This document shows, in pieces, positions 3,725 to 39,464 of a stretch of 64,000 bases of DNA. Below the pieces are notes generated by a model. The model did no database searches and was not told where the DNA came from. It saw only the letters and a list, made by a program, of their open reading frames with translations. Each line of letters starts with the position of its first letter. The stretch's first letter is position 1. The translations under genes and the position numbers were made by a program. The stretch is from a virus (taxonomy: Duplodnaviria; Heunggongvirae; Uroviricota; Caudoviricetes): IMG/VR virus record IMGVR_UViG_3300045988_147489, positions 20,848 through 84,847 of that record. One strand, given 5' to 3'.

Positions 3725-4074
3725 TTTCCCGCGATGAATCCGGGACAAGGACCGTCTCAATAGATCTCGGATTCTATTTCAGTCGTGTAGTTGCTCACTA
3801 CGCCGTGTCGCCATTAGAGCTACTGAACGTTCCTCTCACGATGTTCTGGATGCTCAGTCGCAATATAGACCGTCTGCGTGCGGAAGAGGATGTCCGCAAC
3901 TTACAAGTCGCTCGTGCGTCCCAGGCGGATGGCGAGGCTGTGAAGGCGTTCATGGAGGGTTTGCAACTCAGGATTGGAAGACCAGTCGTAACAGATAAAG
4001 TCTACGATCCAAGCCAGGATAAGGCAGACCCTGACGCCAAAGAGCAACTGATGCAAATATTTGGCAGAGGATGA
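3688..4074 (+). CDS. gpT-like extension, probably expressed as a G-T fusion by -1 frameshift
   Basis: -1 frame relative to the G-like ORF is open from 3688 to the TGA at 4072-4074; A-rich GAAAAAG at 3695-3701 lies in the overlap. Confidence 0.5.
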   Translation, partial: RKRKSGWRRGKVISRDESGTRTVSIDLGFYFSRVVAHYAVSPLELLNVPLTMFWMLSRNIDRLRAEEDVRNLQVARASQADGEAVKAFMEGLQLRIGRPVVTDKVYDPSQDKADPDAKEQLMQIFGRG

Positions 4075-4081
4075 CAAGGGA

Positions 4082-8602: not shown

Positions 8603-8645
8603 TAAAGCAGGCCGCCTTAACGGGCGGCCATCACAAGGAAGTGAT

Positions 8646-8981
8646 ATGTCGAGGAAAGTATTTAATTGGTATCCAGATTATGAGTCTGAGAAAACCGTAA
8701 AGCCTAACGTGACCGTGCTGAACTACGGCGACGATTACGAGCAGCGCCAGTCGCAGGGGCTCAATCGGATTAAAGAAGAGTGGTCTCTCACGTTCACCCG
8801 TAGCCATGACGTGGTAAACGACGTTGATGACTTTTTGACTGCCCGCGCTGGGGTGGAGTCATTCATTTGGACTAACCCAAGAGGCAAAGCAATTATCGTG
8901 GTTTGTGACAGCCATACGGTAAAGCGTTACCCCGGTTATCAAGTGCTTACGGCAACATTTAGACAGGTTTTTGAGTCTTAA
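8646..8981 (+). CDS. minor tail protein (lambda gpM-like)
   Basis: AAGGAAG RBS, about 111 aa, order M-L-K-I-J as in lambda. Confidence 0.75.
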   Translation: MSRKVFNWYPDYESEKTVKPNVTVLNYGDDYEQRQSQGLNRIKEEWSLTFTRSHDVVNDVDDFLTARAGVESFIWTNPRGKAIIVVCDSHTVKRYPGYQVLTATFRQVFES

Positions 8982-9067
8982 CTTGCGACTATAGATAAGT
9001 AATCACTTATCTATTATCATATATCAACACCACAGGATGTGACGTTGAGTTTTTCAAGGATGAAGTG

Positions 9068-9766
9068 ATGGGTATTAGAGCTGATATTCAGAGTTTATCG
9101 CCTTCTGCGCTCATTGAGTTGTTCGAGTTGGATATGTCGGTGACAACCTCCGGCGGCAAGTTGTATTTCCATGCCGGCACCAACGGGCTTAGCCAGCCAA
9201 TTGTCTGGCAGGGAGTTTCCTATGAGCCGTGGCCAATTAAAGCGTCTGGCTTTGATAAAAGCGGTCAGGGAACACTTCCTCGTCCAAAGATTCAGGTTTC
9301 CAACTACGACGGTGTAATTTCTGCCGAGCTGCAGGCCAATGACGATCTGATTGGCTGCAAAATCATTCGCAAGATGACGCTGGCACGTTTTCTGGACGCG
9401 GTGAACTTTCCGGATGGAAACCCGACTGCAGACCCAAGTCAGCATTTTGCTGATGAAATGTGGTTCGTCGAACAGAAGACCCTGGAGACGCACCAGTATG
9501 TCGAATTCGAGCTGTCCAGCGTCTTAGATCTGATGGGCGTTCAACTGCCGTATCGTCAGATCATCAAAAACAGCTGCCCGTGGAAATATCGCGGAACAGA
9601 GTGTGGTTACACCGGCCCCTATTTCGACAAAAACAACCAGCAAACCTCTTTGGCCGGCGCCGACTACTGCACCAAGCGTTACGACGCCTGTAATGCTCGC
9701 CGCAACTACTTCGCGAATGGCGTTATTCATTTTGGCGGATTTATTGGGGCGACACGATATGAGTAA
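9068..9766 (+). CDS. minor tail protein (lambda gpL-like)
   Basis: contains ARFLDAVNF and WKYRGTECGYTGP, which match my recollection of conserved gpL segments. Confidence 0.8.
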   Translation: MGIRADIQSLSPSALIELFELDMSVTTSGGKLYFHAGTNGLSQPIVWQGVSYEPWPIKASGFDKSGQGTLPRPKIQVSNYDGVISAELQANDDLIGCKIIRKMTLARFLDAVNFPDGNPTADPSQHFADEMWFVEQKTLETHQYVEFELSSVLDLMGVQLPYRQIIKNSCPWKYRGTECGYTGPYFDKNNQQTSLAGADYCTKRYDACNARRNYFANGVIHFGGFIGATRYE

Positions 9767-10556
9767 CCAGACGTTACCTGAGCTGGGCTCAGAAGTCATG
9801 CAGGATATCTATCGCTGCGCTATCCAACGTTACCCGAATGAAGCGTGTGGCTTTCTTGTGCGCACACAGGGTGAGAAATATCGCTTTATGGAAGCGATGA
9901 ATGTCTCTGAAACGCCACGTGAGGATTTTGTCATGCGTGCCAGCGACATTATTGCGGCCGAAGATGCTGGGGAAGTGATCGCTATTTGGCACTCTCACGT
10001 TGAGCGCAGCGCAGAGGCGTCAGACCCGGATCGCTCCGGGTGCGAGGCGACGGAACTACCGTGGATGATTCTGGCAATTCGCAAAAATGTGGAAAGCGAT
10101 ATGCCATTCCACTTTAGCGAAATGAACGTCATTTATCCGTGTGGTTTTGAGATGCCCTACCTCGGGCGCCCATACGTATTCGGTGTGTTTGATTGCTGGA
10201 TGCTGTGCCGCGATTACCTAAAGCGTGAATTTGACGTTGAGCTGAATGCAAACGCCCACCTGCATATTCCTTCTTGGTACACGGGGGACAACGACATCCT
10301 CGACCAGAACTACCGAAATGAAGGACTTGTCCGCATGGCGCCGGGGACGGAACCCCAGCGCGGCGACATCTTCTTCATCCAGTACGGGAAAATGCCAGAT
10401 CACTGCGCGGTATACATCGGCGACGGCATGATCATGCATCACCAGATCGACCGTCTCAGCTGTCGGGCTTATTACGGTGGGATGTATCAGAAGCACACGA
10501 CGCATCACCTGCGTCACAGGGATTTACTCAAGGGAGACGAGACGTGTCTGAATTAG
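9759..10556 (+). CDS. tail assembly protein (lambda gpK-like), JAMM/MPN plus NlpC/P60 domains
   Basis: ATG overlaps gpL stop (ATGAGTAA); HSHVERSAEASDPD is a JAMM metal motif; C-terminal Cys/His region (FDCWMLCRDY). Confidence 0.75.
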   Translation: MSNQTLPELGSEVMQDIYRCAIQRYPNEACGFLVRTQGEKYRFMEAMNVSETPREDFVMRASDIIAAEDAGEVIAIWHSHVERSAEASDPDRSGCEATELPWMILAIRKNVESDMPFHFSEMNVIYPCGFEMPYLGRPYVFGVFDCWMLCRDYLKREFDVELNANAHLHIPSWYTGDNDILDQNYRNEGLVRMAPGTEPQRGDIFFIQYGKMPDHCAVYIGDGMIMHHQIDRLSCRAYYGGMYQKHTTHHLRHRDLLKGDETCLN

Positions 10557-11155
10557 TTCATGTTCAGCTCGGCGGTGCGATGGCAAAGAACTTTGGCCGC
10601 CACTGGAAATTGAAGGTGCGCAACACCAAACAAGCCATCGATTTGATTGAGGCGAATCGCCCGGGCTTTAAAGCCTGGATTAAGCGTAACCGTAACCACT
10701 TCGATAAGTACCACATCCAGGTCACAAATAAGCAGGGCCACAAGTGGTCAATGGACGACACCGAATACCAGATGATGGGCGAGTCGGAAAATATCGTAAA
10801 AATCCGCATTACTCCCGTACCACGTGGCAGCGGTGGTAAGGCGTTTGGGTGGTTCCAGACTTTCGTGGGCGCCGCGATGATCGCTGTCGGCGCTCTGGCC
10901 TCTGGGCTGACTTTTGGTGCGTCTTCCGCGCTGGTGATGGGAGGGATGTCATTGATGATGGGCGGTGTGTCCATGCTGATTTCGCCGCAGGCATCAAATG
11001 CGTCTGTCAGACAGGCGGATAACACGGATTCGTTTTACTTCGATGGGCCTCAAAACACCAGCAACCAGGGAAACCCGGTTCAGCTTAATTACGGCGAGGA
11101 AATTTTAGTTGGCTCACAGATTGTGAGTTCTTCAATCACCATAGACCAACTGTAA
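10544..11155 (+). CDS. tail assembly protein (lambda gpI-like)
   Basis: GTG start after GGGAGA; Gly/Ala-rich hydrophobic middle and C-terminal pattern like gpI; synteny. Confidence 0.7.
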   Translation: MSELVHVQLGGAMAKNFGRHWKLKVRNTKQAIDLIEANRPGFKAWIKRNRNHFDKYHIQVTNKQGHKWSMDDTEYQMMGESENIVKIRITPVPRGSGGKAFGWFQTFVGAAMIAVGALASGLTFGASSALVMGGMSLMMGGVSMLISPQASNASVRQADNTDSFYFDGPQNTSNQGNPVQLNYGEEILVGSQIVSSSITIDQL

Positions 11156-11171
11156 GGGAAGTTTTTTGAAC

Positions 11172-14100
11172 ATGGATCAGTTCAAGAAAAAGAGATTGCC
11201 CCTCCTGATTGCGGGAGCGGGCGGCAAAAAGAGCTCAGGCTCAAGCCGTACACCAGTTGAAGCGGATGATACCGTTAATTCGCGGGCCATGGCGTCTATC
11301 CTCGATCTGCTCGGGGAAGGTGTTGTTGGTGGGCTTATTAACGGTGCTAAATCTATCTTCATCGATGGCGTGGCGCTGGAGAACGAAGACGGATCATTCA
11401 ACTATTCCGGTGTAACCTGGGATTTCCGGGATGGTTCACAAGACCAAAGCCCGATGCCTGGTTTCGATTTTGTCGAAACGCCAAAGGCCGTTAACACACA
11501 GCTGAAAACCACAAACGCGGTTACGGTCGCCATCGATAACGACGACGCTGATCGTGTCCGAGTGATCATGAAGTTCCCGTCGCTGCGTAGCATTGACAAG
11601 AAAACAGGGGACACAAACGGTACTTCTGTCCAGTTTAAGTTCCAGCTGGCCAATGGCAATGGCTCTTTCTATGACGTGATTGCTACAGGTGAGAGCAGCT
11701 CTGACGTGAAGCTGACTGCGAAAAAGACTGGTGTCTACTACCGCAGTTACGAAATCCAACTTCCAAAGCCTGGGCGCGCCTATAAAGTGCGCGTGCTTCG
11801 TCTCTCCGCCGACAGCAACGATCAGTATCTCTTTAACGATACCTGGGTCGACTCTATCGGTGAGATCGTTGACACCCCAATGAACTACCCGAACTCCGTT
11901 CTGGTTGGCCTTAAGGTTAACTCTGAGCAGTTTGGTAGCTCTATGCCGTCACGTTCGTATCTTATCCGTGGCCTCAAAATCCGTGTGCCTTCGAATTATG
12001 ATGAAAATACGAACACTTATAACGGCGTTTGGGATGGAACCTTTAAGCTTCTGTCGTCTTCCAACCCTGCCTGGATTCTGTTCGATCTGCTGACCAATGC
12101 TCGTTATGGCCTCGGCAAATTTGTTTCGGAGTCAATGATTGACCTTGGTCAGCTTTATCAGATCGGTCGCTACTGCGACGAAGAGGTTGATGATGGCTTT
12201 GGCGGCAAAGAAAAACGCTTTGCAATCAACACCCAGATCACCAGTCGTCAGGACGCTTATCGTCTGATTCAGGATATTGCCGGCGCTTTCCGTGGCATGG
12301 TTTTCTGGGCTGGTGGCATGGTGAATATCATGCAGGACAGCCCGTCTGACCCTGTCATGCTGTTTACCAACGCAAACGTAAAAGATGGCCTGTTTACCTA
12401 TAAAGGCTCAGCTCGAAAAGACCGGCCGTCCGTAGCGTTGATCACTTATAACAACAAACAAGACGGCTATAAGCAGAACGTTGAGTATGTTGAAGATCAG
12501 GAAGCGATGGCCCGATACGGGGAGCGCAAGACCGAGGCCGTTGCGTTCGGATGCACCAGCCGAGGTCAGGCTCATCGTGTAGGTTTGTGGCTGCTCTATA
12601 CCGCGCGTATGGAGTCAGACATGATCACCTTTACCGCGGGCCTGGACGCCTCGTTCCTGATGCCGGGCGAAACCGTTCTGATCCAGAACAAATATCGTGC
12701 CGGCAAACGCAATTCCGGTCGCATTGTCTCTTTCACCAAAAACAGCATCACCCTCGATGCACCTGTCTCTCTGAAAAAGAGCGGTAGCTTCATCCGTATC
12801 ATCAATCAGGAAGGCAAAATCGTTGAGCGAGACATCAACGAGACCGGCGACAACATCACTAAAGTTACCTTCAAGACGGCGTTGGCCACAGCCGAACAAC
12901 CAGTAGCGAATGGCGTCTGGACGATCACCGAACCAGACCTTGTTCCAATGCGGGCGCGCGTTGTCGCTATCGCGCAAGGTGAAACCCCGGGGTCGTTTGA
13001 TATCACGGTGGTGCAGAACAATGCATCTAAGTACCAGGCGATTGATAACGGGGCCGCGCTCGTTCCAGAAAATACGACGGTTCTTGATCCCACATATTCC
13101 AAACCGAGCAATCTGGTCATCTCAGAAGGCACCTATCTGTCCAGTCCGGGCAACTTGTCCGTGAAGCTGATGCTTGCCTGGGAAGGTAAATCACCAGAAT
13201 ACTGGGTCAGCTGGCGCCGCTCCGACGAGGGCAACGTCTCCAACTGGCAATCTGCCCGCGCCACGGAAGAACAATATGAAATCGTCAATGTTGCCGAAAA
13301 TGGGCGATATGACTTCCAGCTGTATTCCGTTTCCTTCGGCGGCAAAAAATCCGAGATCATTACTGCTGTCTATCAGGTAAAAGGCACGATGACGCCGCCA
13401 GGGGCGCCCACATCACTCACCGCGGTGGGGGATTATCGTAACGTGGTATTGAATTGGGTTAACCCTGATTCAGTCGACCTCGCGCAGATCAACGTGTATG
13501 CGTCCAAAACAAATAAGCTGGACACCGCAACACTCATTGCTCAGGCTGCAACAACGACTTTCACTCACGCTGGCCTGGGTGACAACGAGACCTGGTATTA
13601 CTGGATTCGTGCGGTAAACAAACGTGGGATGGTAGGCCAGCCGAACTCGAACCTCGGTACAGAGGCCACCACTCGCGACGTATTGTCTTTCCTGAAAGAT
13701 AAGATCACATCTTCTGAACTCGGCAAGGAGCTGCTCGACGAAATCGACAGCAAAGCCACTCAGGAGGCGGTAGACAACGCCATTGGAGAGGTTCAGAACT
13801 CAGTCAACGAGTCTATCCAGCAAGTTGAAAACGATCTGGCGCAAACCTCCTCCGAAATTAAGGCGCAGGTTGACTCTGTCAATCAGTCGCTGAAAGAGGA
13901 TATAAAGACCGTCAATCAGACGATTGTTGACAACATCGATGCCGTCAACCAGACGATCAATACCAACATCTCCAACGTAAACAGCCAAATTGAAGCTGCA
14001 AAACAGTCTATTAAAGACGGCGACGCGGCTCTGTCGCAGGAGATTAAGAATGCGCAGTCATCACTGACAACGTCGCTGTCCCAGACCAGCAAAGATCTGA

Positions 14101-17100
14101 CTGCGGCCATTCAGAAAGAGACGAATGACCGTATTGCAGATGTTAATGACGCAGCCAAGCAAGCGGCCGACCAACTGCTGAGCGCGAAGAATGAGCTGAA
14201 AACCTCTATCGATAGCTTGTCTGAGGTTGTGACCTCCGGTGACGAAAACCTCGCGCGACAGATCTCGCAGATTGCCGCTGGCACAGGGGAACAGTTTGAC
14301 TCTCTGAAAATCTGGTATTTCGACCAGGACGCTGAAGGCTGGACGGAAGATGATAATGGCTACACGCCAATGAGCGTCACCAGCGATGGCTGGCTGAAAG
14401 CGAACAATCCGACCTCAACCTGTCGTTCCCCTAACGGCTTGACGATCGATGCCCATGCTTATCGTTTCATTAAGATGCGCATTAAAAAGGTTGGCAACCC
14501 AACCTGGAACGCCAAAATGTTCTGGATCGGCGCTGATGAAACCGGCTGGAATGCTGGTCGCTCCGTGGTTATCAATGAACCGGAATACGATGACAAGGGT
14601 ATTGCGATTCTGACCCTGCACGACCTTGAGTGGCGAGATTCGACAACGATTCGTCGTTTCCGCTTCGATTTCACTTCAGGTCAGGATACGGACAATTACC
14701 TGTTATTCGACTGGATTGCTGTCGGTCGACCGACGCCGGGCGCAGGCATGGCCGCGTTACAGGAAGAGCAGCAGGCTCGTGCGAATGCAGATACCGCCGA
14801 AGCGCAGGCGCGCAGCACATTGGCTGCACAAATCCGCGGTTCATCTGAAAGCGGAAATCTGGACGACATTCGTTCTGGCCTGATCTATCAGGAGAAAAAT
14901 GCTCGTATCACCGCCGATGCTGCGGAAGCGAGTGCGCGTGAATCCCTGCAGACTGAATTCAACAGAAACAAAGCCTCTGTTGCAGAAGAGCTGCATACGC
15001 TGTCCACTGAACAAGCTTCCCAGGCAAGCAAGATTACCGGGTTGCAAACAAGCCTTGGCCAGAAGGCCGATGCCAGTGCAGTACAGACAATTTCCCAGAA
15101 GGTTGAAGAGCAGGGCAACACCCTTAAATCACAAGGTGCGGCATTGTCTACGCTGGATAATCGCGTAGGAAGTGTTGAGTCTGGTGTATCTGCGAATAGC
15201 AAGGCGATCACGGGTCTGCAGTCGACCGTAACCCAGCAGGATAAAACCCTTAGCAGCCAGAGTGAAAGCATCACCACCCTGAATAACTCGCTGAGCGATA
15301 TCCAGAGCGATACCGATACTGCCAAAAGCAACCCGAGTAATTTGCTGGTTAACGCCTCCTTTGAGCGTGACCTGGCAGGGTGGTCTGCAGGGAACAGCGT
15401 ATCCAATGTTATCAAAGCGAGCGCGCCCCATTCTGGTAGCAAAATTCTTGTTTGCGCCGCTGGCACGGTGCAAATCACGCAATCTGTAAGCGTCGTCGAA
15501 GGGCGGACATACAAGCTGTCCTCTTTTGTGCGGTGCACCACTGATGCGGTGATCAGCAGCCCTGGCAACAACAAACTGCGTATTGGCGCGGCTACGTTGC
15601 TCAAAGAGATTCCGATCCGTCCGGAGAATCTGCCCAAAGATGAAACATGGAAGGAGGTCTCTGATACCTGGAAGGCGACGCTGACCGGTAAAGTTGACGT
15701 ATCGATCATGTCTTCTCTCAAAACCGGTTCTCAGTACTTCGATGATGTTGGTTTTGTTGACGTCACTGATGCTCTGGCGATTGAGGCGAACGCCAGTGCC
15801 ACCAATGCTTTGACCTCTCGGGTATCGTCTGTTGAGGGCACCATCACAAGTCAGGGGCAACAGATCACTTCGATGCAGAACAGTATCAAGAACAAAGCTG
15901 ACGCCTCAGCTGTGACTAATCTGGCAAACCGCGTAACTGCTGCCGAAAATCAGATCTCCAGCCAGTCCCAGAGCATCACCAGCCTGTCAAATTCGCTGGA
16001 TAACGCCAATGCTGATGCGGATGCCTCGAAAGCGATCATCGGCAACATGCTCAAAAACAACTCTTTTGAACGTGGTTTCGAAGGTTGGGAGTATGTTGGT
16101 TGGACTCTGCTGGAGGCCCAAAACCCCAAATCGGGGAAATACATCATCCAGGCGGGCAAACTGGCCTCTGGCGGTGACTCGGGCTGCAACCAAACGATCG
16201 AGCTGCAGGCTGGCAAGACTTATCGTATCGGCGCATGGGTTCGCAAATCCGCTGACTTCGCGATTAATAATGCCGGCAACAACAAAATTAGCCTTCGAAA
16301 CGCAGATCTTACGCCAATAAAGGATATCCCGATCACTGGCGCCGGGCTGTCGACGAACTGGGCGCTTATTAGCGGCGAGTATACGCCAGCCAAAACCGCG
16401 AGCGTGGTTGTGTCTCTGCGCGCAAGTGTCGCTTCAGGCTATATGTATCTCGATGACGTCTTCTGCGTTGACGTGAGCAATGAGAAAGCGATTGATGCGA
16501 CGTCCAATGCGTTATCAACCCTCAACAGCACCGTGACCCAGCAGGGAAAAGACATTACGTCTAACTCCAACAGCATCACTTCGCTGTCAAACCAGATGGT
16601 TAACGGCCGCCAGAACATGTGGGTGCGTAGCGTATACAACGTACAACTGGCGAACAATACCACTGAGCCGACCTTTAGCGATATCAACGGTAAGGCGCCA
16701 ATCTCGATCGATGAGGTTCCTGACGCGGCAAAACTGGACTTTGCGAGCGCCGGCAGTTACGTGATCGCGCATTACAAAGCCTTCGTGAAAGTCAATGCTG
16801 ATACCACCATCACTATGGCACCAGGGTCTCGTGTTTTTGATGATACGGGCGCCGTGTACGTGAACGGTGTTAGGGTTGCCTTTGGTAATGCGAGCTGGAA
16901 TACGGTTAGCTTTGATCTGAAAGCTGGCTGGAGCACGGTTGAGTTCTTGGTGAACCAATGGACTGGTCAGGCTTACATTAACCTCGGCTTTAAACTGTCC
17001 GAGAAGGTAGCCCAGCTGAATTCTGCTCTTGGGATGAACGCGCTTTCGAATGCCATTAGCGCCGTCACCTCAAACGTCAGCACCGTAGGTGATCGCGTCA

Positions 17101-20100
17101 CGAGCACCTCGCAGAGCGTTACTGATCTGCGAAACAGCCTCGAACAGACCAACGCTAATCTGGCGAATAAGGCAGATGCACAGGCGCTGTCTACGCTGCA
17201 AAATACGGTCTCCAAGCAGGGGGATACGATTTCCAGCCAGGGTAACAGCATCACGAACCTGAATAACACCCTGACCGCTGCCAGAAACTCCGGTGACAAC
17301 CTGATCCCGAACTACGATTTCCTGCAGGGTGCAACTGCGTGGGATATCCAGTATCCGGCGGGCGTCGCTTTCGGCAACTTCGGTGATGGTAAGGCTGGGG
17401 TTAAACTGAACCGGACGACCACTACCAGCCCAGGCATCTTCTCCAACAACAACAAGCCGCTGCCGCTTAATGGTCAGCGCAAATATCGTGTTGTGGTTAA
17501 AGCCAAGGGCGTGTCCGGGGCGATGAACATGTTGATCCGGCGCCAGAACAAAATCGGCCAGACCGACAGCAATTATGAAGATAAAAACGTCACACTCACC
17601 AGTGAGTGGCAGACCATTACCTGGGAAACTGGGCTTACTGCCTCTAACGCTGATGGTCAGAACTTTAAGCTTTATGCGCACCCGGCTAATGCCGAAATCT
17701 GGGTTGATACCTTTAAGGTCTTTGATATCACGGATGAGGTGAAGATCAAGGCTAATAGCGATGCGCTGTCTACGTTGTCGAGCACGGTGACACAGCAGGG
17801 TGACAAGATCACCAGCCAGGGCAACAGCATCACTAAGTTGACCAATGACCTCGAGGCCGCTGACGCAAACATCGCGAAAAAGGCCGATCAGTCGGCAGTC
17901 ACTACGCTGACAGGTCGGGTAGAGAAGACGGAGTCCGGTCTGACGGCGGCGAACAGCAACATTACGTCGCTTAGCAGCTCTCTGAGCCAGCAATCCAAAC
18001 GCGGCGCTAATCTGCTTCCTGATGGCACTTTTGAAAGCTACGCGGTTGGCCATAATCTATCAAATAATCGCGTTATCGTTACCACTGATGACTCTCACGG
18101 TGGAAATAAGTGCATCCGTGTGACGCGTCCGAACGACTACAACGCCAACGCAACAGATAACAGCGATAACCATATTTTTAGCGGATTTCAGGTTCGCGAT
18201 AACGCAGTGTTCTACATGGAGTGCTGGGTTAAGCTGGATGCCAATAGCACAGCCATGGCCGAGAACACGCAGATCTCTATCGGTTTGTCGCTCCAGTATC
18301 AGGATAACTCGTGGCAGTGGCCGGCAGTAACTAAAGCTGCGAAAGATCTGTCTACAGCTCAATGGACGAAGGTTTCTGGTTACCTGAAATCAACGAAGAG
18401 CGGTATTAAGCAGGCAATGGTGAGGATTTCTATTCCTAACGTTAGCAGCGTTAAGGCGGGAAACTCATTCCTTATTGATGACCTGGTCATTACCGAAGTA
18501 ACTGATGCCTACAATGCGCAAAGTACAGCAGATGCTAACGCCAATGCGATTTCGACACTGGACTCGACCGTTTCCCAACAGGGCGACCAGATCACCAGTC
18601 AGGGTAACAGCATCACCAAACTGACAAATGACCTGGCAACGACCAATAACAACGTCAGTAAAAAAGCGGATCAGAGCGCTTTAAGCGTGTTGTCCGGGCG
18701 CGTCGATCAAACAGAATCGGGCTTATCCTCTGCGAATAGCAGTATCACTGCGCTTAATTCATCTGTACGCGCAGGGAATGCGACAAGTGGCGATTTGATT
18801 AGCAACCCGACATTTGACCCAGAGTTTAGTCAGATGGGCTTCACTGTGGTTCCCAGCTCGTCTGAGGGCGTGCCAGCCAATTGCCCATACGCTTATGTTG
18901 CACGCATTGCGGCTCGCGACCATCACCCAAATTTTGCTGCTATTCCGGCGACATTGGGGGATGTCTATGAAATGTCTGCTCTCGTCGCGTGTGGCACTGG
19001 CTCCGCTGATTTCAACCTGTATCTCGGAACCGCAACACGGCCAAGCGGCAGCGTGGGCGCGCCTCTGTCATCTGGCGGCAACCGCAAGGCGTCGGCCACA
19101 TGGCAGCGAGTAACCTGGCGTTTCAAAATTACTCAGGGGATTGTCGATCGCGGCTTCTTCCGTCCATTCCTGCAAATCAACCAGTCCAGCCCGTTCGGCA
19201 CCGTCTGGTATGTGACCGACTGGCATCTGCGGAACGTAACCGACTCCTCCAAAGTTCAGGATTCTCTCGATGCTACGGCGAAAGCGGTTGATTCGCTGAC
19301 CTCTACGGTAAATCAGCAGGGGGAGAATATCTCCAGCATTGGTACACGTACTACCAATCTTGAGAATAATTTGAGAACAACAAATGCAAACGTTGCTCAA
19401 AAAGCGGACGCCAATGCTCTGACGGCACTGACCAACCGTGTTACCCAGACCGAAAAAGACATTAACTCAACGAGTTCTTCTGTCACGAATCTGAACAACA
19501 AGGTTGATGCAATTTCTGTCGGCGGTACAAACCTGATCAAGAACTCCGGCGATATGACCGGCTGGTCGAACGTTGTCAGCGATACGTATCGTGGTAACGC
19601 GGTAATTGGCGCAACTGTAAAAGCCGGCTCCGGTTACAGGGATTTGCGGGAAATCACGCTTGAGTCGCCGGTCGATGCAGGTGAGTACGTTTACAGCTTC
19701 TATGCGAAAGGCGGTGTTGCTGGCCAGATTATGACGGCGTTCTTCTACAATCCGAACACTACAACGTCTATCGAGACCAGCCAGGGTGCGAAGGGTAACA
19801 ACAGTGATGGCCGTGCGCAGTTCACGCTGACCACTTCATGGGCCCGCTATTGGGTTAAGTGGAAACAGACACCTACCACGAGTACCAAGCGCCTGATTCT
19901 GTGTCGTATCGAGAGCAATACCTCCAAAGACCAGACGGTGTACATCAACAGTCCGAAGTTTGAGGTAGGTAACGTTGTTTCCGACTGGAACGAGTCTCCG
20001 TCTGATAGTGCCAGTGCGTCGGCTGTGGACTCGCTGACAACGAAAGTGAATCAGCAGGGCACTTCCATTAGCTCTATCGGAAATCGCACCACATCGTTGG

Positions 20101-23100
20101 AAAACGGGTTATCGACAGCTCAAAACAACATTGCCAAGAAGGCTGATGCTTCTGCATTGCAGGATCTCCGGAACACGGTGACATCTCAGGGTGATGATTT
20201 AACCGCGGCGAACAGCAGCATTACCAGCCTGCATGCCTCGATGAACCGTCGCACTGTGTTTACTGTCACTGCACGGGGTAATGGCAACAGCGTTACCCAT
20301 GGGGTGTTTGATGAAAGCGGCAAGAATCTGTTTACCCCTGGTCGCAGCTGGGCGCTGGTCACTTTTGCAAAACACAGCGACGGATCAACGGTGATTGCGA
20401 CCTCCAAAACATACGATGTCTTTGGCAGCGCGAATAATGGCGCCACGATGTCGGCTGATATCGAGGCACTGGCCAGTGGGACTTACGTTTGCGTCCTGAC
20501 ATTCGATGAGCCAACTGGCAACCGAGGTAAGGTGTTGTCTGCCCTGGAATCTCTTGGTGGCACTTCCGAAGTCGTTAACTCTCTGCCGTATCGTGGCGCC
20601 TACATTCTCCTTGGCCGCAAAGGTATGAAGCCGGGCGATGGTCTGGAACTGCGTGCGCCAACCGGTGGCGACGGCACCGCCCACATTTCGACCTCAGTCG
20701 AGTTTGTGAACGGGGTAATGATGGGGCTGGGCGCCGCTGGTGGTGTGATGATGAAGGCTGATGCGAACGCATCTGCAATTACCACGCTCCAGAATACAGT
20801 GAAGACCCAAGGGGATAATATTGACTCCCTGAGCTCCTCGACAACAGCGCTGGAAAACAGCCTTGCGTCCAGTAACGCCAGCGTGGATGCAGCAAGCCAG
20901 ATCCCCGGTAACCTGATCGTAAACCCGTCTTTTGAGCGTGGTACGGAGGGCTACACTGGTTGGAGCGGTATTGCCACGGTGGCAACGCTGCAGGTTCCAC
21001 ATCTTGGCACCAAAGCCGCCAAACTAGCGGCGGGTGGTTCTGCAGGCGTGGGCCAGAAGATCTCCTTCAAAAAGGATCGGTCGTACAAAATTGGTATTTG
21101 GGCAAAGCAGGACCCTAATACCACCATTCAGTCGACCGACAACACAAAATTCCGTGTGGCTGACGGTACTGGCCTGATTGCAAGTAAGGTTTATGGTCCG
21201 TTCACCTCGAACTGGCAGGAGGTGTCATGGACATGGAAGGCGACAAAGGATGTCCTTGCTGACGTTCAGTTCACTGCTTTCTTGTCAGCCGGCGCGATGT
21301 ACTTTGATGATTTTTACGTCGTCGATGTGACCGACTCAGTTGAAACTCAGGCGAACTCGAGTGCGATCACGAAGCTCGATAGTCGTGTGACCAAGACAGA
21401 GAATGACATCACCAGCCAGGGCAGCCAGGTTACGCAACTTAAGAATGACCTTGCTACCACAAACACAAATGTTTCGAAGAAAGCGGATGCAGCTGCGTTA
21501 ACGGCATTAACGAACCGCGTCACGCAGAATGAGAAAGAAATTGGAACCCAGAGCAGCCAGACAACTTCGCTCAAAAACTCTTTGAGCACTGTTCAGGCAA
21601 TGGGAAGCAACCCGTGGTTTGATGGTTCTCTGGAGACGTACTCCGAAAACCAGCAGATCAGCGGCTCGCGCGCGGTCGTCGTCAGCTCTCAGAAACGAAG
21701 CGGAACGAAGTCGTTGCGTGTTTCCCGCGGCGCCGGTGAGGGCGGAAACAGCGATAAAACCATCGGTAAGTGGATTGCTCTGCGTGAAAATGCGGTATTC
21801 CGCATTGAACTCTGGGCGATGATGCCGGCAGATCAGTCGCCATCATCCGGGTGGTCAACGCTCGTTGGTTTGCAGACCCAAAACGCTGCCAACAACAATA
21901 ACTGGCCGACGGCAATCACTATCAATGAAGCCGCATTGGGTGCAAGAGGCGCATGGAAGAAATTCACCGGTACGCTCCGTGTAGCCGCTGGCCACACTCG
22001 CGGCGCATTTTGGGTATCTACCCGCGGCACAACTGGCACTGGTACACCGGGGTATGATCTGTATATCGATGACGTTGTTGTCACCGATATCACCGACGCA
22101 AAAGAGGCTCAAGATTCGGCTAATTCGAACGCATCCGCGCTCACCAGCCTTACCTCACGTGTTACCAATGTAGAAGGGCAGGTGACATCCCAGGCGTCTC
22201 AGCTGTCCTCTTTGACGTCCCAGGTGAATGATGCGTCTTCGAAGGTTGATCAGATGGCGCAAACCATCACCAACAACGAGAAAACGCAGTCGTCGCTGAA
22301 TACCAGCTTGCAGTCGCAAATTGATGCGCAGGCATCGGCAAACATCAAGAACCAGACGGAGTTGAATAACGCCACCACTTCGATGGCGGCAATTAAATCA
22401 ACTCAGCAGACTCAGGCCACAACGATTAGTGCACTGTCTCAGCAGCAAACGAATTTAACGGCCCAGGTAGGAGGCCAGTCAGCCGAGCTGCAGGAGCTGA
22501 AGAAAACGGTTGTTGAAAACGGCAACGTTAACAGCACCTGGATGGTCAAAATGGAAACCAACAGCAACGGTAAAAAGTATGCTGCTGGTATAGCTTTAGG
22601 TATCGATGGCAAAAATTTGCAGAGCCAGTTTCTGGTTCAGACTGATCGCTTCGGCTTAATCAACACCTCTAACGGGAATACGACTACACCTTTCGTTATC
22701 GAAAATGGCGTTGCGTATATTAATGCCGCTGTCATTAAAGATGGCTCGATCACCAATGCGAAAATTGGAGGCGAAATCCGTTCTGACAATTTCGTTAATG
22801 GTTCAAATGGCTGGAGAATTGGAAAAGACGGTAGTTCACAGTTCAACAATGCGATATTCAGAGGTCATATTGAAGCGCGCAGTGGTACGTTCAAAGGAAC
22901 CCTGGAAGCTCAAAACTTTATTGGTGATATCGCTGTAGCTCGGCGTTATGCGGGTTTATCGTTCCGTCGTAACAACACCGTACAGCGTGATGGTCGTTAC
23001 CAGAACCGCGGATACGGTATGACTATTGTGCTAAGTTGCACCCTGATATATCAGGTTACTGGGGGGAATGAGGATCGTAACGGTTATATTGTTGAAATGA

Positions 23101-23330
23101 CATTTAACGTTGGCGGTCAGGAGGCAACTCGCAGTTTCCCGATCAACCCGCGAATGAATATGGGCTCCTACTCGATGGAGTTTCGTTTTGCAGCGGATAT
23201 TCCAGGCAACTATGACAACGTCCCGTTCTTTGTAAGAGCACGTGGTCGGGATGCTACTTGGAACTACCAGTGTTATGTAGAAAACATCACTGCCACTGCT
23301 TTCCGTACAAACAGCAACTCATTCAGCTAA
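11172..23330 (+). CDS. giant host-specificity / central tail fibre protein (gpJ-like N-terminus with repeat-expanded extension)
   Basis: single ORF of about 4050 aa; N-terminal about 800 aa has gpJ-like layout including an FN3-like segment; rest is repeated modules; TTG at 11166 is an alternative start. Confidence 0.85.
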   Translation: MDQFKKKRLPLLIAGAGGKKSSGSSRTPVEADDTVNSRAMASILDLLGEGVVGGLINGAKSIFIDGVALENEDGSFNYSGVTWDFRDGSQDQSPMPGFDFVETPKAVNTQLKTTNAVTVAIDNDDADRVRVIMKFPSLRSIDKKTGDTNGTSVQFKFQLANGNGSFYDVIATGESSSDVKLTAKKTGVYYRSYEIQLPKPGRAYKVRVLRLSADSNDQYLFNDTWVDSIGEIVDTPMNYPNSVLVGLKVNSEQFGSSMPSRSYLIRGLKIRVPSNYDENTNTYNGVWDGTFKLLSSSNPAWILFDLLTNARYGLGKFVSESMIDLGQLYQIGRYCDEEVDDGFGGKEKRFAINTQITSRQDAYRLIQDIAGAFRGMVFWAGGMVNIMQDSPSDPVMLFTNANVKDGLFTYKGSARKDRPSVALITYNNKQDGYKQNVEYVEDQEAMARYGERKTEAVAFGCTSRGQAHRVGLWLLYTARMESDMITFTAGLDASFLMPGETVLIQNKYRAGKRNSGRIVSFTKNSITLDAPVSLKKSGSFIRIINQEGKIVERDINETGDNITKVTFKTALATAEQPVANGVWTITEPDLVPMRARVVAIAQGETPGSFDITVVQNNASKYQAIDNGAALVPENTTVLDPTYSKPSNLVISEGTYLSSPGNLSVKLMLAWEGKSPEYWVSWRRSDEGNVSNWQSARATEEQYEIVNVAENGRYDFQLYSVSFGGKKSEIITAVYQVKGTMTPPGAPTSLTAVGDYRNVVLNWVNPDSVDLAQINVYASKTNKLDTATLIAQAATTTFTHAGLGDNETWYYWIRAVNKRGMVGQPNSNLGTEATTRDVLSFLKDKITSSELGKELLDEIDSKATQEAVDNAIGEVQNSVNESIQQVENDLAQTSSEIKAQVDSVNQSLKEDIKTVNQTIVDNIDAVNQTINTNISNVNSQIEAAKQSIKDGDAALSQEIKNAQSSLTTSLSQTSKDLTAAIQKETNDRIADVNDAAKQAADQLLSAKNELKTSIDSLSEVVTSGDENLARQISQIAAGTGEQFDSLKIWYFDQDAEGWTEDDNGYTPMSVTSDGWLKANNPTSTCRSPNGLTIDAHAYRFIKMRIKKVGNPTWNAKMFWIGADETGWNAGRSVVINEPEYDDKGIAILTLHDLEWRDSTTIRRFRFDFTSGQDTDNYLLFDWIAVGRPTPGAGMAALQEEQQARANADTAEAQARSTLAAQIRGSSESGNLDDIRSGLIYQEKNARITADAAEASARESLQTEFNRNKASVAEELHTLSTEQASQASKITGLQTSLGQKADASAVQTISQKVEEQGNTLKSQGAALSTLDNRVGSVESGVSANSKAITGLQSTVTQQDKTLSSQSESITTLNNSLSDIQSDTDTAKSNPSNLLVNASFERDLAGWSAGNSVSNVIKASAPHSGSKILVCAAGTVQITQSVSVVEGRTYKLSSFVRCTTDAVISSPGNNKLRIGAATLLKEIPIRPENLPKDETWKEVSDTWKATLTGKVDVSIMSSLKTGSQYFDDVGFVDVTDALAIEANASATNALTSRVSSVEGTITSQGQQITSMQNSIKNKADASAVTNLANRVTAAENQISSQSQSITSLSNSLDNANADADASKAIIGNMLKNNSFERGFEGWEYVGWTLLEAQNPKSGKYIIQAGKLASGGDSGCNQTIELQAGKTYRIGAWVRKSADFAINNAGNNKISLRNADLTPIKDIPITGAGLSTNWALISGEYTPAKTASVVVSLRASVASGYMYLDDVFCVDVSNEKAIDATSNALSTLNSTVTQQGKDITSNSNSITSLSNQMVNGRQNMWVRSVYNVQLANNTTEPTFSDINGKAPISIDEVPDAAKLDFASAGSYVIAHYKAFVKVNADTTITMAPGSRVFDDTGAVYVNGVRVAFGNASWNTVSFDLKAGWSTVEFLVNQWTGQAYINLGFKLSEKVAQLNSALGMNALSNAISAVTSNVSTVGDRVTSTSQSVTDLRNSLEQTNANLANKADAQALSTLQNTVSKQGDTISSQGNSITNLNNTLTAARNSGDNLIPNYDFLQGATAWDIQYPAGVAFGNFGDGKAGVKLNRTTTTSPGIFSNNNKPLPLNGQRKYRVVVKAKGVSGAMNMLIRRQNKIGQTDSNYEDKNVTLTSEWQTITWETGLTASNADGQNFKLYAHPANAEIWVDTFKVFDITDEVKIKANSDALSTLSSTVTQQGDKITSQGNSITKLTNDLEAADANIAKKADQSAVTTLTGRVEKTESGLTAANSNITSLSSSLSQQSKRGANLLPDGTFESYAVGHNLSNNRVIVTTDDSHGGNKCIRVTRPNDYNANATDNSDNHIFSGFQVRDNAVFYMECWVKLDANSTAMAENTQISIGLSLQYQDNSWQWPAVTKAAKDLSTAQWTKVSGYLKSTKSGIKQAMVRISIPNVSSVKAGNSFLIDDLVITEVTDAYNAQSTADANANAISTLDSTVSQQGDQITSQGNSITKLTNDLATTNNNVSKKADQSALSVLSGRVDQTESGLSSANSSITALNSSVRAGNATSGDLISNPTFDPEFSQMGFTVVPSSSEGVPANCPYAYVARIAARDHHPNFAAIPATLGDVYEMSALVACGTGSADFNLYLGTATRPSGSVGAPLSSGGNRKASATWQRVTWRFKITQGIVDRGFFRPFLQINQSSPFGTVWYVTDWHLRNVTDSSKVQDSLDATAKAVDSLTSTVNQQGENISSIGTRTTNLENNLRTTNANVAQKADANALTALTNRVTQTEKDINSTSSSVTNLNNKVDAISVGGTNLIKNSGDMTGWSNVVSDTYRGNAVIGATVKAGSGYRDLREITLESPVDAGEYVYSFYAKGGVAGQIMTAFFYNPNTTTSIETSQGAKGNNSDGRAQFTLTTSWARYWVKWKQTPTTSTKRLILCRIESNTSKDQTVYINSPKFEVGNVVSDWNESPSDSASASAVDSLTTKVNQQGTSISSIGNRTTSLENGLSTAQNNIAKKADASALQDLRNTVTSQGDDLTAANSSITSLHASMNRRTVFTVTARGNGNSVTHGVFDESGKNLFTPGRSWALVTFAKHSDGSTVIATSKTYDVFGSANNGATMSADIEALASGTYVCVLTFDEPTGNRGKVLSALESLGGTSEVVNSLPYRGAYILLGRKGMKPGDGLELRAPTGGDGTAHISTSVEFVNGVMMGLGAAGGVMMKADANASAITTLQNTVKTQGDNIDSLSSSTTALENSLASSNASVDAASQIPGNLIVNPSFERGTEGYTGWSGIATVATLQVPHLGTKAAKLAAGGSAGVGQKISFKKDRSYKIGIWAKQDPNTTIQSTDNTKFRVADGTGLIASKVYGPFTSNWQEVSWTWKATKDVLADVQFTAFLSAGAMYFDDFYVVDVTDSVETQANSSAITKLDSRVTKTENDITSQGSQVTQLKNDLATTNTNVSKKADAAALTALTNRVTQNEKEIGTQSSQTTSLKNSLSTVQAMGSNPWFDGSLETYSENQQISGSRAVVVSSQKRSGTKSLRVSRGAGEGGNSDKTIGKWIALRENAVFRIELWAMMPADQSPSSGWSTLVGLQTQNAANNNNWPTAITINEAALGARGAWKKFTGTLRVAAGHTRGAFWVSTRGTTGTGTPGYDLYIDDVVVTDITDAKEAQDSANSNASALTSLTSRVTNVEGQVTSQASQLSSLTSQVNDASSKVDQMAQTITNNEKTQSSLNTSLQSQIDAQASANIKNQTELNNATTSMAAIKSTQQTQATTISALSQQQTNLTAQVGGQSAELQELKKTVVENGNVNSTWMVKMETNSNGKKYAAGIALGIDGKNLQSQFLVQTDRFGLINTSNGNTTTPFVIENGVAYINAAVIKDGSITNAKIGGEIRSDNFVNGSNGWRIGKDGSSQFNNAIFRGHIEARSGTFKGTLEAQNFIGDIAVARRYAGLSFRRNNTVQRDGRYQNRGYGMTIVLSCTLIYQVTGGNEDRNGYIVEMTFNVGGQEATRSFPINPRMNMGSYSMEFRFAADIPGNYDNVPFFVRARGRDATWNYQCYVENITATAFRTNSNSFS
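13680..22520 (+). repeat. internal tandem modules within the J gene (about 11 copies of coiled-coil segment plus CBM-like beta-sandwich domain)
   Basis: recurrent peptide blocks such as STVTQQGDKITSQGNSITKLTNDL...KKADQSA and domain starts such as NASFERDLAGW, NNSFERGFEGW, NPSFERGTEGYTGW; matching DNA repeats e.g. CAGGGTAACAGCATCAC at about 17235, 17818, 18603; coordinates approximate. Confidence 0.7.
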
Positions 23331-23386: not shown

Positions 23387-24826
23387 ATGGCAATGTATGA
23401 AGTTGGCACCATAACGGGTGCTGCAAACCAGGCAAAGGTTACAGGTATTTCCACTAAGTGGTCGGAGACCGCCCTGGGTATTCAAGAGGGTTCGATTCTT
23501 GTCATTTATCGCAATGGAAGTGCCGATCTGTATGCCATCAAATCCGTTAATAACGACACTCAACTGACCCTGACGAGAAACATTACAACAGCTTTTTCTG
23601 GTGCGAAATATGGAATTATCACATCAGAAACAGCCAGCACATCGTCTTTTGCTAATCAACTCGCCAGTGCATTCACTCTGTGGCGTAATGTTGTCCAGGG
23701 GTGGTCTACAGCACTAACAGGTAGTGGCAATATTACAATAACAGACCCTTTAACGGGTGTATCTGTGACTGTTCCAGCAATTTCAGGAATGGCGAAAGCG
23801 TCCGATCTCACAGCACTTAGCAACTCGCTGAAAGATGTAGCGAAGACTACAACGGCAAACACATGGACGCAGGCGCAGACGTGGAACGCAGCATCTACGT
23901 TTAAAAATAACCTTACGGTGAACGGCACTTTTACAGTAAATGGGAATTTCTACGGCAAGCAGCTTGCTGGAGGCCACATAGAGTTAACAGGGGCGACCCC
24001 TTATATCGACTTTCACCACGGCAACACCACAACAGACTACACACATCGAATTATTACTGAGAATGGGGCATTGGCTGTTTATCCGGGCTTACGCGTCCGT
24101 GGTGGATTGGGGATTTATGGTGTAGCTACGCAATACGGAGATCAGTACGGGCAGGGATTTATCACCCGTCTTAACACAGATCCAGGTAACGTAGCTAACG
24201 GCACAATCATTGCCTCTCCACGCGTCACAACTAGGTTCAACACTCGCGGCAGTGACACAAATGTTGACGGCGGACAGGGGGCCATGTGGTTTGAGGAGCA
24301 GGTGGGGACGAACCATAGGCTGGTATTCATGCTTGGTGGTTTCAGTCAGCCTGTCCAATATTGGCACCACTTGCCTGATGGGCGGATCTATAGTAGTTCT
24401 CGCGGCGATGTTGCATTTAACGGGACGTCCGACGAACGGTTGAAACATAGTATAGAACCGACTGACGGCCATTTGTCAGTCGATCGCATTCGTCAGCTTG
24501 AGCTGGTGACGTTCGTCTATAACGATGACGAGCAGGAACGAGTACGCCGCGGGATTATTGCGCAGCAGGCTCAGCTGGTCGACAAACAGTATGTTAAGCA
24601 GATTAACACATCGTATATTCTCAACGGTGAGAAAGTGGACGATGACCGTCTGCAACTCGATAATAACGTTATTCTAATGGATACATTGGCGGCGGTTAAA
24701 GTACTGATTCAGCGAGTTGAAGAACTTGAGAATAAACTTAACTCATCAGAAGGGAGCGACGCCATAAATACAAACCAGAATACCTTCGATACAGGCGTGG
24801 CCATGAGAAGTGAGCAATCAAATTAA
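23387..24826 (+). CDS. side tail fibre protein with C-terminal intramolecular chaperone (peptidase S74-type) domain
   Basis: AAGGAAG RBS; C-terminal NGTSDERLKHSIEP matches the autoproteolytic chaperone signature as I recall it. Confidence 0.7.
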   Translation: MAMYEVGTITGAANQAKVTGISTKWSETALGIQEGSILVIYRNGSADLYAIKSVNNDTQLTLTRNITTAFSGAKYGIITSETASTSSFANQLASAFTLWRNVVQGWSTALTGSGNITITDPLTGVSVTVPAISGMAKASDLTALSNSLKDVAKTTTANTWTQAQTWNAASTFKNNLTVNGTFTVNGNFYGKQLAGGHIELTGATPYIDFHHGNTTTDYTHRIITENGALAVYPGLRVRGGLGIYGVATQYGDQYGQGFITRLNTDPGNVANGTIIASPRVTTRFNTRGSDTNVDGGQGAMWFEEQVGTNHRLVFMLGGFSQPVQYWHHLPDGRIYSSSRGDVAFNGTSDERLKHSIEPTDGHLSVDRIRQLELVTFVYNDDEQERVRRGIIAQQAQLVDKQYVKQINTSYILNGEKVDDDRLQLDNNVILMDTLAAVKVLIQRVEELENKLNSSEGSDAINTNQNTFDTGVAMRSEQSN

Positions 24827-37992: not shown

Positions 37993-38073
37993 TTGAGAAC
38001 ATTGGCGTAACGGGTTCATATCCCAATTTATGAATATAATGTTGCGTTGCAGCGTGACAACCAGTGTTCTCAA
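37993..38073. repeat. long-range inverted repeat C immediately 3' of tRNA-Thr
   Basis: TTGAGAACATTGG ... CCAGTGTTCTCAA (1 mismatch). Confidence 0.5.
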
Positions 38074-38278
38074 CATTGTGGTGAATGCACAGGCTGATGT
38101 GCGACGTAGAAGCAAGCGGATGAACTGCCTGAAGGCCGCTAACGTAGGCAATGCCGGAGATCAGCACCGGCCATCACAATTTGGCTCTCTTGCAACAGCA
38201 TAACGCTGAAATACGTCCAACCTGGTGCGGTCTGATCACCCGCCGTTAGCTCCACGAAACGGAGCACACAACACAATT

Positions 38279-38365
38279 GGAGAGTAGGGAGCATGGTGCT
38301 CAAGCGGTCTTGAAAACCGTCCCATTGTGCAAACGATGATGGTTCGATTCCATTACTCTCCGCCA
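38279..38365 (+). tRNA. tRNA-Ser (anticodon TGA), long variable arm
   Basis: acceptor GGAGAGT/ACTCTCC, anticodon stem-loop GCGGT-CTTGAAA-ACCGT, T-loop GGTTCGATTCC, CCA end. Confidence 0.65.
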
Positions 38366-38367
38366 GA

Positions 38368-38445
38368 CACAGCGTTGAGCGGTTTGGCCTTTTAATCAAC
38401 CAGATTAAGACTCCGCTAACATAAACCAGACCGCTCAACGCTGTG
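38368..38445. repeat. long-range inverted repeat D immediately 3' of tRNA-Ser (16-bp perfect arms)
   Basis: CACAGCGTTGAGCGGT ... ACCGCTCAACGCTGTG; arm sequence resembles repeat B. Confidence 0.6.
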
Positions 38446-38499
38446 ATAGACAATTACGGCAGACGTTCTTAACCATAGCTTGCTAACATCCTAGCAACA

Positions 38500-38542
38500 C
38501 TTTTTTCAGCGCAAAATTCAAAGGGGCTTCGGCCCCTTTTTT
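38500..38542 (+). terminator. terminator-like element; also copy 1 of a direct repeat flanking the lipoprotein gene
   Basis: TTTTCAGCGCAAAATTCAAAGGGGCTTCGGCCCCTTTTTT. Confidence 0.55.
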
Positions 38543-38658
38543 GATTTGTTGACACTTAGTTATATTCACGTATCGTTTTATCGCTTTGATCCGAGGCAGC
38601 GTTAGACTGCCTTCATGTTCCTGATTAGATCGCAGCAGTTAAACATGGAGACAAATTA

Positions 38659-39455: not shown

Positions 39456-39464
39456 CTGCACAAC

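Follow-up and report, generated by a model that had tools for sequence, protein, structure and literature searches.

Giant, module-bearing J proteins are already known from Klebsiella phage phiKO2 and from the Klebsiella siphophages S8, and the general working idea of how they act has been published as well. Gp21 of phiKO2 (3433 aa, annotated as 'similar to lambda J protein') is said to have been called an exceptionally long central tip tail fibre by Casjens and colleagues in 2004. The protein described here is a large member of the same kind. Its gene lies on a stretch of 64,000 nucleotides of Caudoviricetes DNA (positions 20,848 to 84,847 of the IMG/VR record IMGVR_UViG_3300045988_147489; this whole stretch is called the window below and is numbered from its first letter), and the element that carries it is a phage-plasmid of the pKpn/SSU5 type. 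The protein is a gpJ-type central tail fibre of 4052 aa, in which coiled coils and lectin-type domains are inserted between the two ends of a lambda-like J protein, and its relatives have lost and exchanged single modules.

Regarding the closest described systems, de Sousa et al. reported Gp21 homologues of about 4200 aa in prophages, and temperate Klebsiella phages that are capsule-type specific and yet lack recognisable depolymerases (PMC7784688). The S8 phages of Beamud et al. (2023) are broad-range siphophages whose first receptor-binding protein has 2309 or 3201 aa with two to three carbohydrate-binding modules (CBMs), and whose second receptor-binding protein has an endosialidase chaperone; no depolymerase fold was found (PMC9989827). 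These phages produce no haloes and show weak, strain-dependent depolymerisation and a weak dependence on capsule type; their authors proposed that the capsule is passed without catalysis, and that the first receptor-binding protein is a polyprotein (PMC9989827). In siphophages of Gram-positive bacteria, CBM-type jelly rolls on tail-tip proteins bind saccharide, as in Tuc2009 BppA and in the 'evolved' Dit and Tal proteins (PMC7291167).

In the window, the gene is a single uninterrupted open reading frame (ORF; 11166-23330, plus strand), and its first ATG, at 11172, is a start codon shared with annotated relatives. The protein matches the PHROG family 'central tail fiber J' and, in Pfam scans, the families FNIII-A_GpJ (107.6 bits), Phage-tail_3 (111.1 bits) and Phage_Tail_Tip (PF09327, the C-terminal straight-fibre domain; 140-147 bits). 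Residues 20-860 align with residues 3-837 of lambda gpJ (8iyk_J; E 1.7e-119), and residues 3783-3927 with residues 856-1004 (E 1.3e-11). With both ends homologous to gpJ, the protein belongs to the gpJ/TipJ family, and a single insert of about 2920 aa takes the place of the about 20 residues that separate the corresponding ends in lambda. A preliminary description had proposed a gpJ-like central tail fibre of about 4050 aa, which is borne out by these matches; its figure of about 3300 aa following the core was too high, as the N-terminal core reaches about aa 860. The parts that frame the insert are the following:

11172..23330, + strand: whole coding sequence, giant TipJ/gpJ-type central tail fibre of 4052 aa (from ORF, Pfam, PHROG, and plasmid and phage matches)
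11229..13751, + strand: N-terminal hub/core, aa 20-860, with FNIII-A_GpJ, Phage-tail_3 and FN3 (aa ~741-832)
22497..22889, + strand: Phage_Tail_Tip, central straight fibre, homologous to gpJ 856-1004
22890..23327, + strand: C-terminal putative receptor-binding domain, in a version found only in E. coli plasmids

Lambda gpJ (TipJ, 1132 aa) thus shares with the window protein the hub/core, the straight-fibre domain, a small terminal receptor-binding domain and the gene order TMP-M-L-K-I-J. It differs in that only the window fibre has the insert of coils and lectin modules, and in its terminal domain, which is unrelated in sequence.

Boundaries of domains and coils were drawn from BLASTP searches of 150-aa fragments against the whole protein, together with a reading of the sequence. 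Residues ~1250 to ~3720 gave many off-diagonal matches, the best with an E-value of 1e-32, and profile-profile comparison (hhalign) likewise found significant similarity between modules. In the insert, 11 globular domains (D0-D10) alternate with 12 coil segments (cc0-cc11), in agreement with the eleven or so modules first counted. The coils are listed with their periodicity and, where present, their KAD motif:

13662..14291, + strand: cc0, hendecad coil with an Apolipoprotein-like match, aa 831-1040
14292..14741, + strand: D0, aa 1041-1190, a relative of the carbohydrate-binding domain in the megatron protein of roseophage R4C
14742..15320, + strand: cc1, heptad coil, aa 1191-1383, KAD at aa 1298
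15321..15779, + strand: D1, aa 1384-1536, CBM_4_9, class A
15780..16028, + strand: cc2, KAD at aa 1575
16029..16487, + strand: D2, aa 1620-1772, CBM_4_9, class A
16488..16592, + strand: cc3, short heptad coil of 35 aa
16593..17015, + strand: D3, aa 1808-1948, PA14-fold, lectin-like, with Asp1890-Asp1891 invariant in the family
17016..17282, + strand: cc4, KAD at aa 2000
17283..17741, + strand: D4, aa 2038-2190, CBM_4_9, deleted in pKp_SB612_3
17742..17993, + strand: cc5, KAD at aa 2237
17994..18515, + strand: D5, aa 2275-2448, CBM_4_9-like, class B, deleted in an E. coli O9:H10 plasmid
18516..18776, + strand: cc6, KAD at aa 2498
18777..19247, + strand: D6, aa 2536-2692, divergent CBM_4_9-like, replaced in pJN2-26 and deleted in pNCRE-61
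19248..19508, + strand: cc7, KAD at aa 2744
19509..20015, + strand: D7, aa 2780-2948, CBM-type jelly roll, divergent CBM_4_9, resembling BppA and CBM4-2
20016..20240, + strand: cc8, KAD at aa 2990
20241..20753, + strand: D8, aa 3024-3194, ILEI/FAM3-like
20754..20897, + strand: cc9, short heptad coil, KAD at its start (aa 3195)
20898..21347, + strand: D9, aa 3243-3392, CBM_4_9, class A
21348..21590, + strand: cc10, KAD at aa 3437
21591..22106, + strand: D10, aa 3474-3645, CBM_4_9, class B
22107..22496, + strand: cc11, long regular heptad coil of 130 aa (periodicity z = 15.5)

The CBM4/9-type identity first suggested for the modules holds for eight of the eleven domains, while D0, D3 and D8 have three other lectin-type folds. 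Five domains exceed the gathering cut-off of CBM_4_9 (PF02018; 25.9 bits), namely D1 (34.4 bits), D2 (38.5), D4 (27.0), D9 (38.9) and D10 (26.2); D5 stays under it with 22.1 bits, and no direct Pfam match to CBM_4_9 was found for D6 and D7. By hhalign, D4, D5/D10 and D6 join the class of D1, D2 and D9 at probabilities of 91-97% (97% for D5, 91-92% for D6), and D0, D3, D7 and D8 stay separate. The possibility that all domains belong to one family was ruled out by this comparison, in which D0, D3 and D8 showed no relation to the CBM class. The signature N-P/N-S-F-E-R...G-W, which had been noted at the start of many of these modules, is literal (as N-x-S-F-E-R...G-W) in D1, D2 and D9, and degenerate in D4, D5, D6, D7 and D10.

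A model of D7, built from 37 diverse homologues, is all-beta (pLDDT 95, pTM 0.91), and its Foldseek matches include a phi812 baseplate protein, CBM4-2, Tuc2009 BppA and CBM16/22/30/61, with E-values from 9e-6 to 1e-3. A direct CBM_4_9 match is present in 14 of the 37 homologues, and one more match, to Pfam BppA, was found in a single homologue. On this modelled fold and these family matches, D7 is classed as a CBM-type jelly roll and a divergent CBM_4_9.

Among the other three folds, the profile of D0 matches residues 491-617 of the R4C megatron protein (8gtc_M; E 1.5e-8), whose residues 482-629 are named a carbohydrate-binding domain in the corresponding paper (8gtc). D8 is related to ILEI/FAM3 (PF15711, cut-off 27 bits), with 42.1 bits when searched alone and 36.7 bits in the whole-protein scan. 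The PA14 beta-sandwich was recovered for D3 in a fold test; Pfam gave no PA14 or GLEYA match for D3 itself, and for 2-3 of 17 homologues gave weak, sub-threshold ones (E 0.013-0.033). Across D3 homologues of 22-74% identity, no alignment columns other than those of Asp1890-Asp1891 are invariant. The context of this pair, FDDTGAVYVNG, resembles VDDSAILSVGG of Flo5, and the pair is a candidate for the calcium-binding Asp-cis-Asp motif with which PA14 lectins bind sugar. Pfam searches of the whole protein and of the single domains, at E<=1, returned no depolymerase (parallel beta-helix), other catalytic, protease or cleavage-associated domain, and a capsule depolymerase tailspike was rejected on the lack of any catalytic domain in that search.

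The coils add up to 1202 residues without a single Pro, Trp or Cys; the 1743 globular residues have 62, 49 and 11 of these, respectively. The richness in Ser, Thr, Asn and Gln noticed at first stands, at 37-60% per coil, whereas the view of the coils as plain heptad segments does not hold throughout: they are heptads broken by KAD nonads and by hendecad stretches. Heptad periodicity is strong in cc1, cc3, cc9 and cc11, and cc0 has the 11/3 periodicity of hendecads. The KAD motif occurs nine times, always within coils (1.2 occurrences would be expected by chance), in the context [IVL]-x-[KNQ]-KAD-x-x-A-[LV], and in the segments of about 85 residues the hydrophobic register shifts by two at the centre, after KAD. 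In the crystal structures of Hartmann et al., trimeric coiled coils have a beta-layer at just such nonads (IEN-KAD-KAD), and a nonad of this kind is listed by these authors in a prophage tail-fibre hyaluronidase (PMC4786415). The KAD nonads and their register shift therefore support a parallel trimeric alpha/beta coiled coil, as would fit a trimeric J protein, and the insert is most likely a rod of this geometry, about 180 nm long. The helical part alone would measure about 178 nm (1202 residues at 0.1485 nm). If the customary 0.15 nm per residue is assumed, the tape measure protein of 1513 aa would correspond to a tail length of about 227 nm.

When aa 1808-2948 were searched against 1.84 billion cluster representatives, 884 matches were obtained, 151 of them below 1e-30 and many with 2000-4800 aa; those with names are the 'TipJ family phage tail tip protein' of Klebsiella. 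Domain profiles mapped onto 44 full-length representatives revealed a shared grammar, N-FN3-D0-[modules]-Tip, with 0-12 modules. In a phage collection, D1-coil-D2 matched 61 records, of which 53 are Klebsiella phages, and the rest are phages of Xanthomonas, Pseudomonas, Brenneria and Enterobacter. Profile mapping gave the architecture strings NF0CC3CCC78CCTR for the window protein, NF07CCC7CT for phiKO2 and NF0CC7CT for the S8 phage VLCpiS8a. Gp21 of phiKO2 thus has the N-core, FN3, D0, coil-separated CBM-like and D7-class modules and the tip in common with the window protein, from which it differs by having seven modules instead of eleven, no PA14-like or ILEI-like module, and an N15-like linear prophage as its carrier instead of a circular phage-plasmid. 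The VLCpiS8a protein (2309 aa) is also a J homologue with CBMs, followed by a chaperone-bearing second receptor-binding protein and without a depolymerase fold; however, it is half the size, has five modules, and belongs to siphophages of about 48 kb from soil and water.

More distant likenesses concern the building blocks. The CBM devices of Gram-positive siphophages also carry CBM-type jelly rolls on tail-tip proteins, and D7 structurally matches BppA, but they have one or few CBMs per protein on compact baseplates and no rod of about 180 nm. The megatron protein of R4C and of the gene transfer agent RcGTA (8gtc) is, like the window protein, a J-like tail-tip protein with a domain homologous to D0; it has a single such domain in a compact baseplate, and no coiled-coil rod. 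Trimeric autotransporter and RTX adhesins, such as Actinobacillus OMP100 and the Marinomonas ice-binding PA14 adhesin, are long modular fibres with KAD beta-layer stalks or PA14 sugar-binding domains; they are bacterial surface proteins rather than virion parts, and resemble the window fibre in building blocks without being members of its family. In the literature searched, no description was found of the full module map, the KAD beta-layers or the PA14-, ILEI- and megatron-like domains, nor of the crossover-sized deletions and the genus-linked terminal swap presented below.

Comparison with relatives revealed the loss or replacement of exactly one module in several cases:

pJN2-26, 4045 aa: in place of D6, a weakly CBM-like cassette of 24% identity
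pKp_SB612_3, 3863 aa: without exactly D4
pNCRE-61, 3798 aa: without exactly D6
E. coli O9:H10 plasmid NZ_CP062854.1 (L007), split gene: without D5
pCAVP366-109, 4233 aa: a mosaic with extra modules, in which D3 is 99% and D8 96% identical and the remainder 18-83%
Enterobacter SSU5-like plasmid, J protein of 1563 aa: no lectin modules (no D0-D10), architecture N-F-T

The deletions measure 579, 738 and 783 nt, all of them in frame, and their junctions fall within sequence common to the flanking coils, in the repeated DNA that encodes the coil starts. Two families of direct repeats, with identities of 60-72%, are found there:

16497..18634, + strand: 101-nt family encoding coil starts, with copies starting at 16497, 17172, 17751 and 18534 and 60-72% identical
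18533..20059, + strand: 51-nt family, with copies starting at 18533, 19271 and 20009

The 101-nt repeats are spaced at 579 and 783 nt, as in the module deletions seen in relatives, and the 51-nt repeats at 738 nt, the size of the D6 deletion of pNCRE-61. Deletions of the size of the repeat spacings are what unequal homologous crossing-over predicts, in line with the repeat-mediated recombination suspected in the preliminary description. Tandem Repeats Finder detected just two trivial short arrays; the repeats are old and diverged, rather than the product of a recent amplification.

Modules also move between unrelated phage backbones, as judged from the N15/phiKO2-like linear Klebsiella phage 48ST307, which shares gene nt 6708-9692 (window 17879-20863, from cc5 to D8) at 92-93% identity. 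Outside this block of about 3 kb, its fibre gene (L008:1939-11520) differs from that of the window, and the sharing suggests that unrelated phage-plasmid lineages have recently exchanged blocks of modules. A different arrangement was observed in the SSU5-like plasmid of Enterobacter hormaechei (L005:14001-22880), where the 1563-aa J protein is followed by a 1374-aa 'phage tail protein' and a tail-fibre assembly protein, and no small S74-chaperone fibre is present at that place. Related phage-plasmids hence use a short J protein and a large side fibre where the window element uses a giant J.

The 3' end of the gene differs between host genera. Klebsiella relatives cease to match at gene nt 11678 or 11739, and the last 481 nt are present only in seven E. 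coli plasmids. No similarity to the Klebsiella versions was detectable in the last ~130 aa, and the stretch exchanged between the Klebsiella and the E. coli elements comprises the last ~130-160 aa. With this E. coli-only end, the window gene joins a fibre body of the Klebsiella type to a receptor-binding end associated with E. coli. The clearest host-linked change is the replacement of the putative C-terminal receptor-binding domain, rather than a change in module number. The gene is carried by 15 of 5426 complete E. coli genomes, always on plasmids, and the top match in the plasmid database PLSDB is an E. coli plasmid (99.8%, full length).

For nine of the 15 E. coli copies, the annotation divides the gene into two or more features, and in NZ_CP062854.1, the sole split copy examined, the reading frame ends early. 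In this plasmid (L007:13700-14481), an insert of about 214 nt gives the J protein another C-terminus (…VLRVRIGRL*), behind which lies a GC-rich hairpin; the window-type receptor-binding domain persists further downstream as a remnant that lacks a start codon. This 3' end looks like the footprint of a 3'-end cassette replacement.

The best explanation for the protein, held with moderate confidence, is that a trimeric, lectin-studded gpJ-type rod binds surface polysaccharide and that its terminal domain engages a receptor. Three copies would form the hub of the tail tip through residues 1-860, by homology with lambda, and the far end would consist of the lambda-like straight fibre and the small terminal receptor-binding domain. 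In between, a rod of about 180-200 nm, interrupted eleven times per chain, would display up to 33 lectin-type domains per fibre. These domains may bind capsule, O-antigen or other glycans weakly and multivalently, and so capture the cell; the long, flexible fibre would then thread the polysaccharide layer without a depolymerase, until the terminal domain engages an outer-membrane receptor and ejection follows as in lambda. During evolution, unequal crossing-over between the diverged coil-start repeats would remove whole modules, single domains would be swapped as cassettes, and the terminal receptor-binding domain would be replaced upon a change of host genus. The preliminary description had suggested a multivalent glycan-binding fibre, and the outcomes of all the checks that it proposed favour its reading.

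A broader proposal is put forward only tentatively: that this multi-specific lectin 'rope' of about 200 nm might be the depolymerase-independent device for capsule recognition and crossing of temperate Klebsiella phage-plasmids, prophages and their E. coli derivatives, in which gain, loss and swap of modules would tune length and glycan repertoire, and the terminal domain would set the genus. If true, it would answer the question, raised by PMC7784688, of how depolymerase-poor temperate Klebsiella phages can be capsule-dependent.

Several observations weigh against a sugar-binding rod. CBM-type jelly rolls also have purely structural roles, the ligand residues of the modules are putative, and the TM-scores of the Foldseek matches of D7 are only 0.46-0.60. 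The fibre body is about 97% identical across some 300 Klebsiella plasmids, which presumably cover many capsule types, and this speaks against capsule-type-specific binding by the modules. In the S8 phages, spots were clearer on acapsular mutants in four of six combinations (PMC9989827). The split annotations of E. coli copies and the early end of the frame in NZ_CP062854.1 suggest that the fibre may be decaying in E. coli. A further difficulty is that a tail tip about 200 nm away from the receptor-binding end would have to reach the membrane to eject the DNA.

Part of this evidence feeds the main rival, a passive spacer with structural nodes, in which the rod simply gives length through a thick capsule and the jelly rolls act as hinges, trimerisation clamps or folding nodes without binding sugar. 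A body highly conserved across many host strains, losses of single modules that keep the reading frame, S8 phages that infect acapsular mutants at least as well (PMC9989827), and sugar-binding residues that are only putative would all suit such a spacer. It is nevertheless unlikely, as a spacer has no need for eleven globular domains of about 150 aa, nor for the recruitment of four lectin-type folds (CBM_4_9, PA14, the megatron carbohydrate-binding domain and ILEI), and would not account for an Asp-Asp pair that stays invariant among PA14-like homologues as diverged as those of D3.

Lectin domains could otherwise serve to hold virions in mucus or in the biofilm matrix, away from cell entry, as has been proposed for Ig-like capsid decorations. 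The general nature of the lectin folds and the origin of the elements, from gut and clinical Enterobacteriaceae, agree with adhesion to non-host glycans, which is improbable given that the domains sit within the receptor-recognising central fibre, between hub and receptor-binding tip, and that it is mainly among phages of the heavily encapsulated Klebsiella that this architecture is found. Still less probable is a polyprotein cleaved into several proteins, or a cryptic polysaccharide-degrading domain: the former was suggested for the S8 homologues, and the weak, strain-dependent depolymerisation by the S8 phages fits the latter (PMC9989827), but binding-type folds account for all 11 domains, the coils run continuously from domain to domain, and the Pfam searches described above recovered neither protease, cleavage-associated nor catalytic domains.

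A mis-assembled repeat count or a non-functional relic has next to no probability, even though short-read assemblies break at this place and some E. coli copies are split, since hundreds of independent assemblies agree (in 296 plasmid records of PLSDB, 80% or more of the gene lies in one place, mostly as a single collinear alignment of about 97% identity), the window copy and the relatives examined have an intact 12-kb reading frame, and repeats of only 60-72% identity are not expected to collapse in assembly. For the window copy, an assembly artefact is refuted by these three observations. In a first protein search, all 87 matches were fragments, none longer than 1072 aa and most of them 'partial' proteins from contigs of 1-3 kb. 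The gene is routinely broken in short-read assemblies, so that its frequency and module content are under-counted in draft genomes.

At the nucleotide level, the gene matches the Klebsiella phage-plasmids vB_KpnS_p4727, vB_Kpn_1825-KPC53 and pJN2-26, of about 110 kb, at 97% identity over 96% of its length, and is annotated there as 'putative tail fiber protein'. Altogether, 424 PLSDB records match, 406 of them from Klebsiella, and nearly all are non-mobilizable Klebsiella plasmids. At least 80% of the gene is also present in five phage records and in the 15 complete E. coli genomes. Phage-plasmids of this type are therefore very common in clinical Klebsiella; related elements have been reported with resistance genes (PMC9600943), and their host range is poorly understood. 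Capsule crossing without an enzyme, an idea raised earlier for the S8 phages and not dissected there, could be addressed with the test constructs that the present map supplies for non-enzymatic multivalent glycan binding: eleven bounded domains, natural deletions of single modules and a swappable terminal domain. The coil-KAD-coil-CBM unit is also a possible scaffold for engineered phage fibres.

The neighbouring genes of the locus are the following:

4061..11155, + strand: upstream tail-tip genes for tape measure (1513 aa), M, L, K (JAB and NlpC/P60) and I, assigned by Pfam
23387..24826, + strand: second tail fibre of 479 aa with a Peptidase_S74 intramolecular-chaperone domain (Pfam), the partner receptor-binding protein of the locus

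The Pfam families found upstream are TMP_3, Phage_min_tail, Phage_tail_L and JAB with NlpC/P60, and the order TMP-M-L-K-I-J is also that of annotated relatives. On the 3' side of the 479-aa fibre follow genes that are annotated as holin and endolysin in pJN2-26.

Further downstream, window 38000-42000 has a G+C content of 0.385-0.395, compared with about 0.45-0.53 elsewhere in the window. The ORFs in this region measure 184, 442 (minus strand) and 367 aa, and the region may represent an accessory island acquired within the element's plasmid-maintenance part. Within the fibre gene itself, the minus strand carries ORFs of 277, 243 and 327 aa (window 14888-18053), of which the one at 17070-18053 starts with ATG. 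These long antisense ORFs are most likely by-products of the Ser/Thr/Ala/Gln-rich codon usage of the gene.

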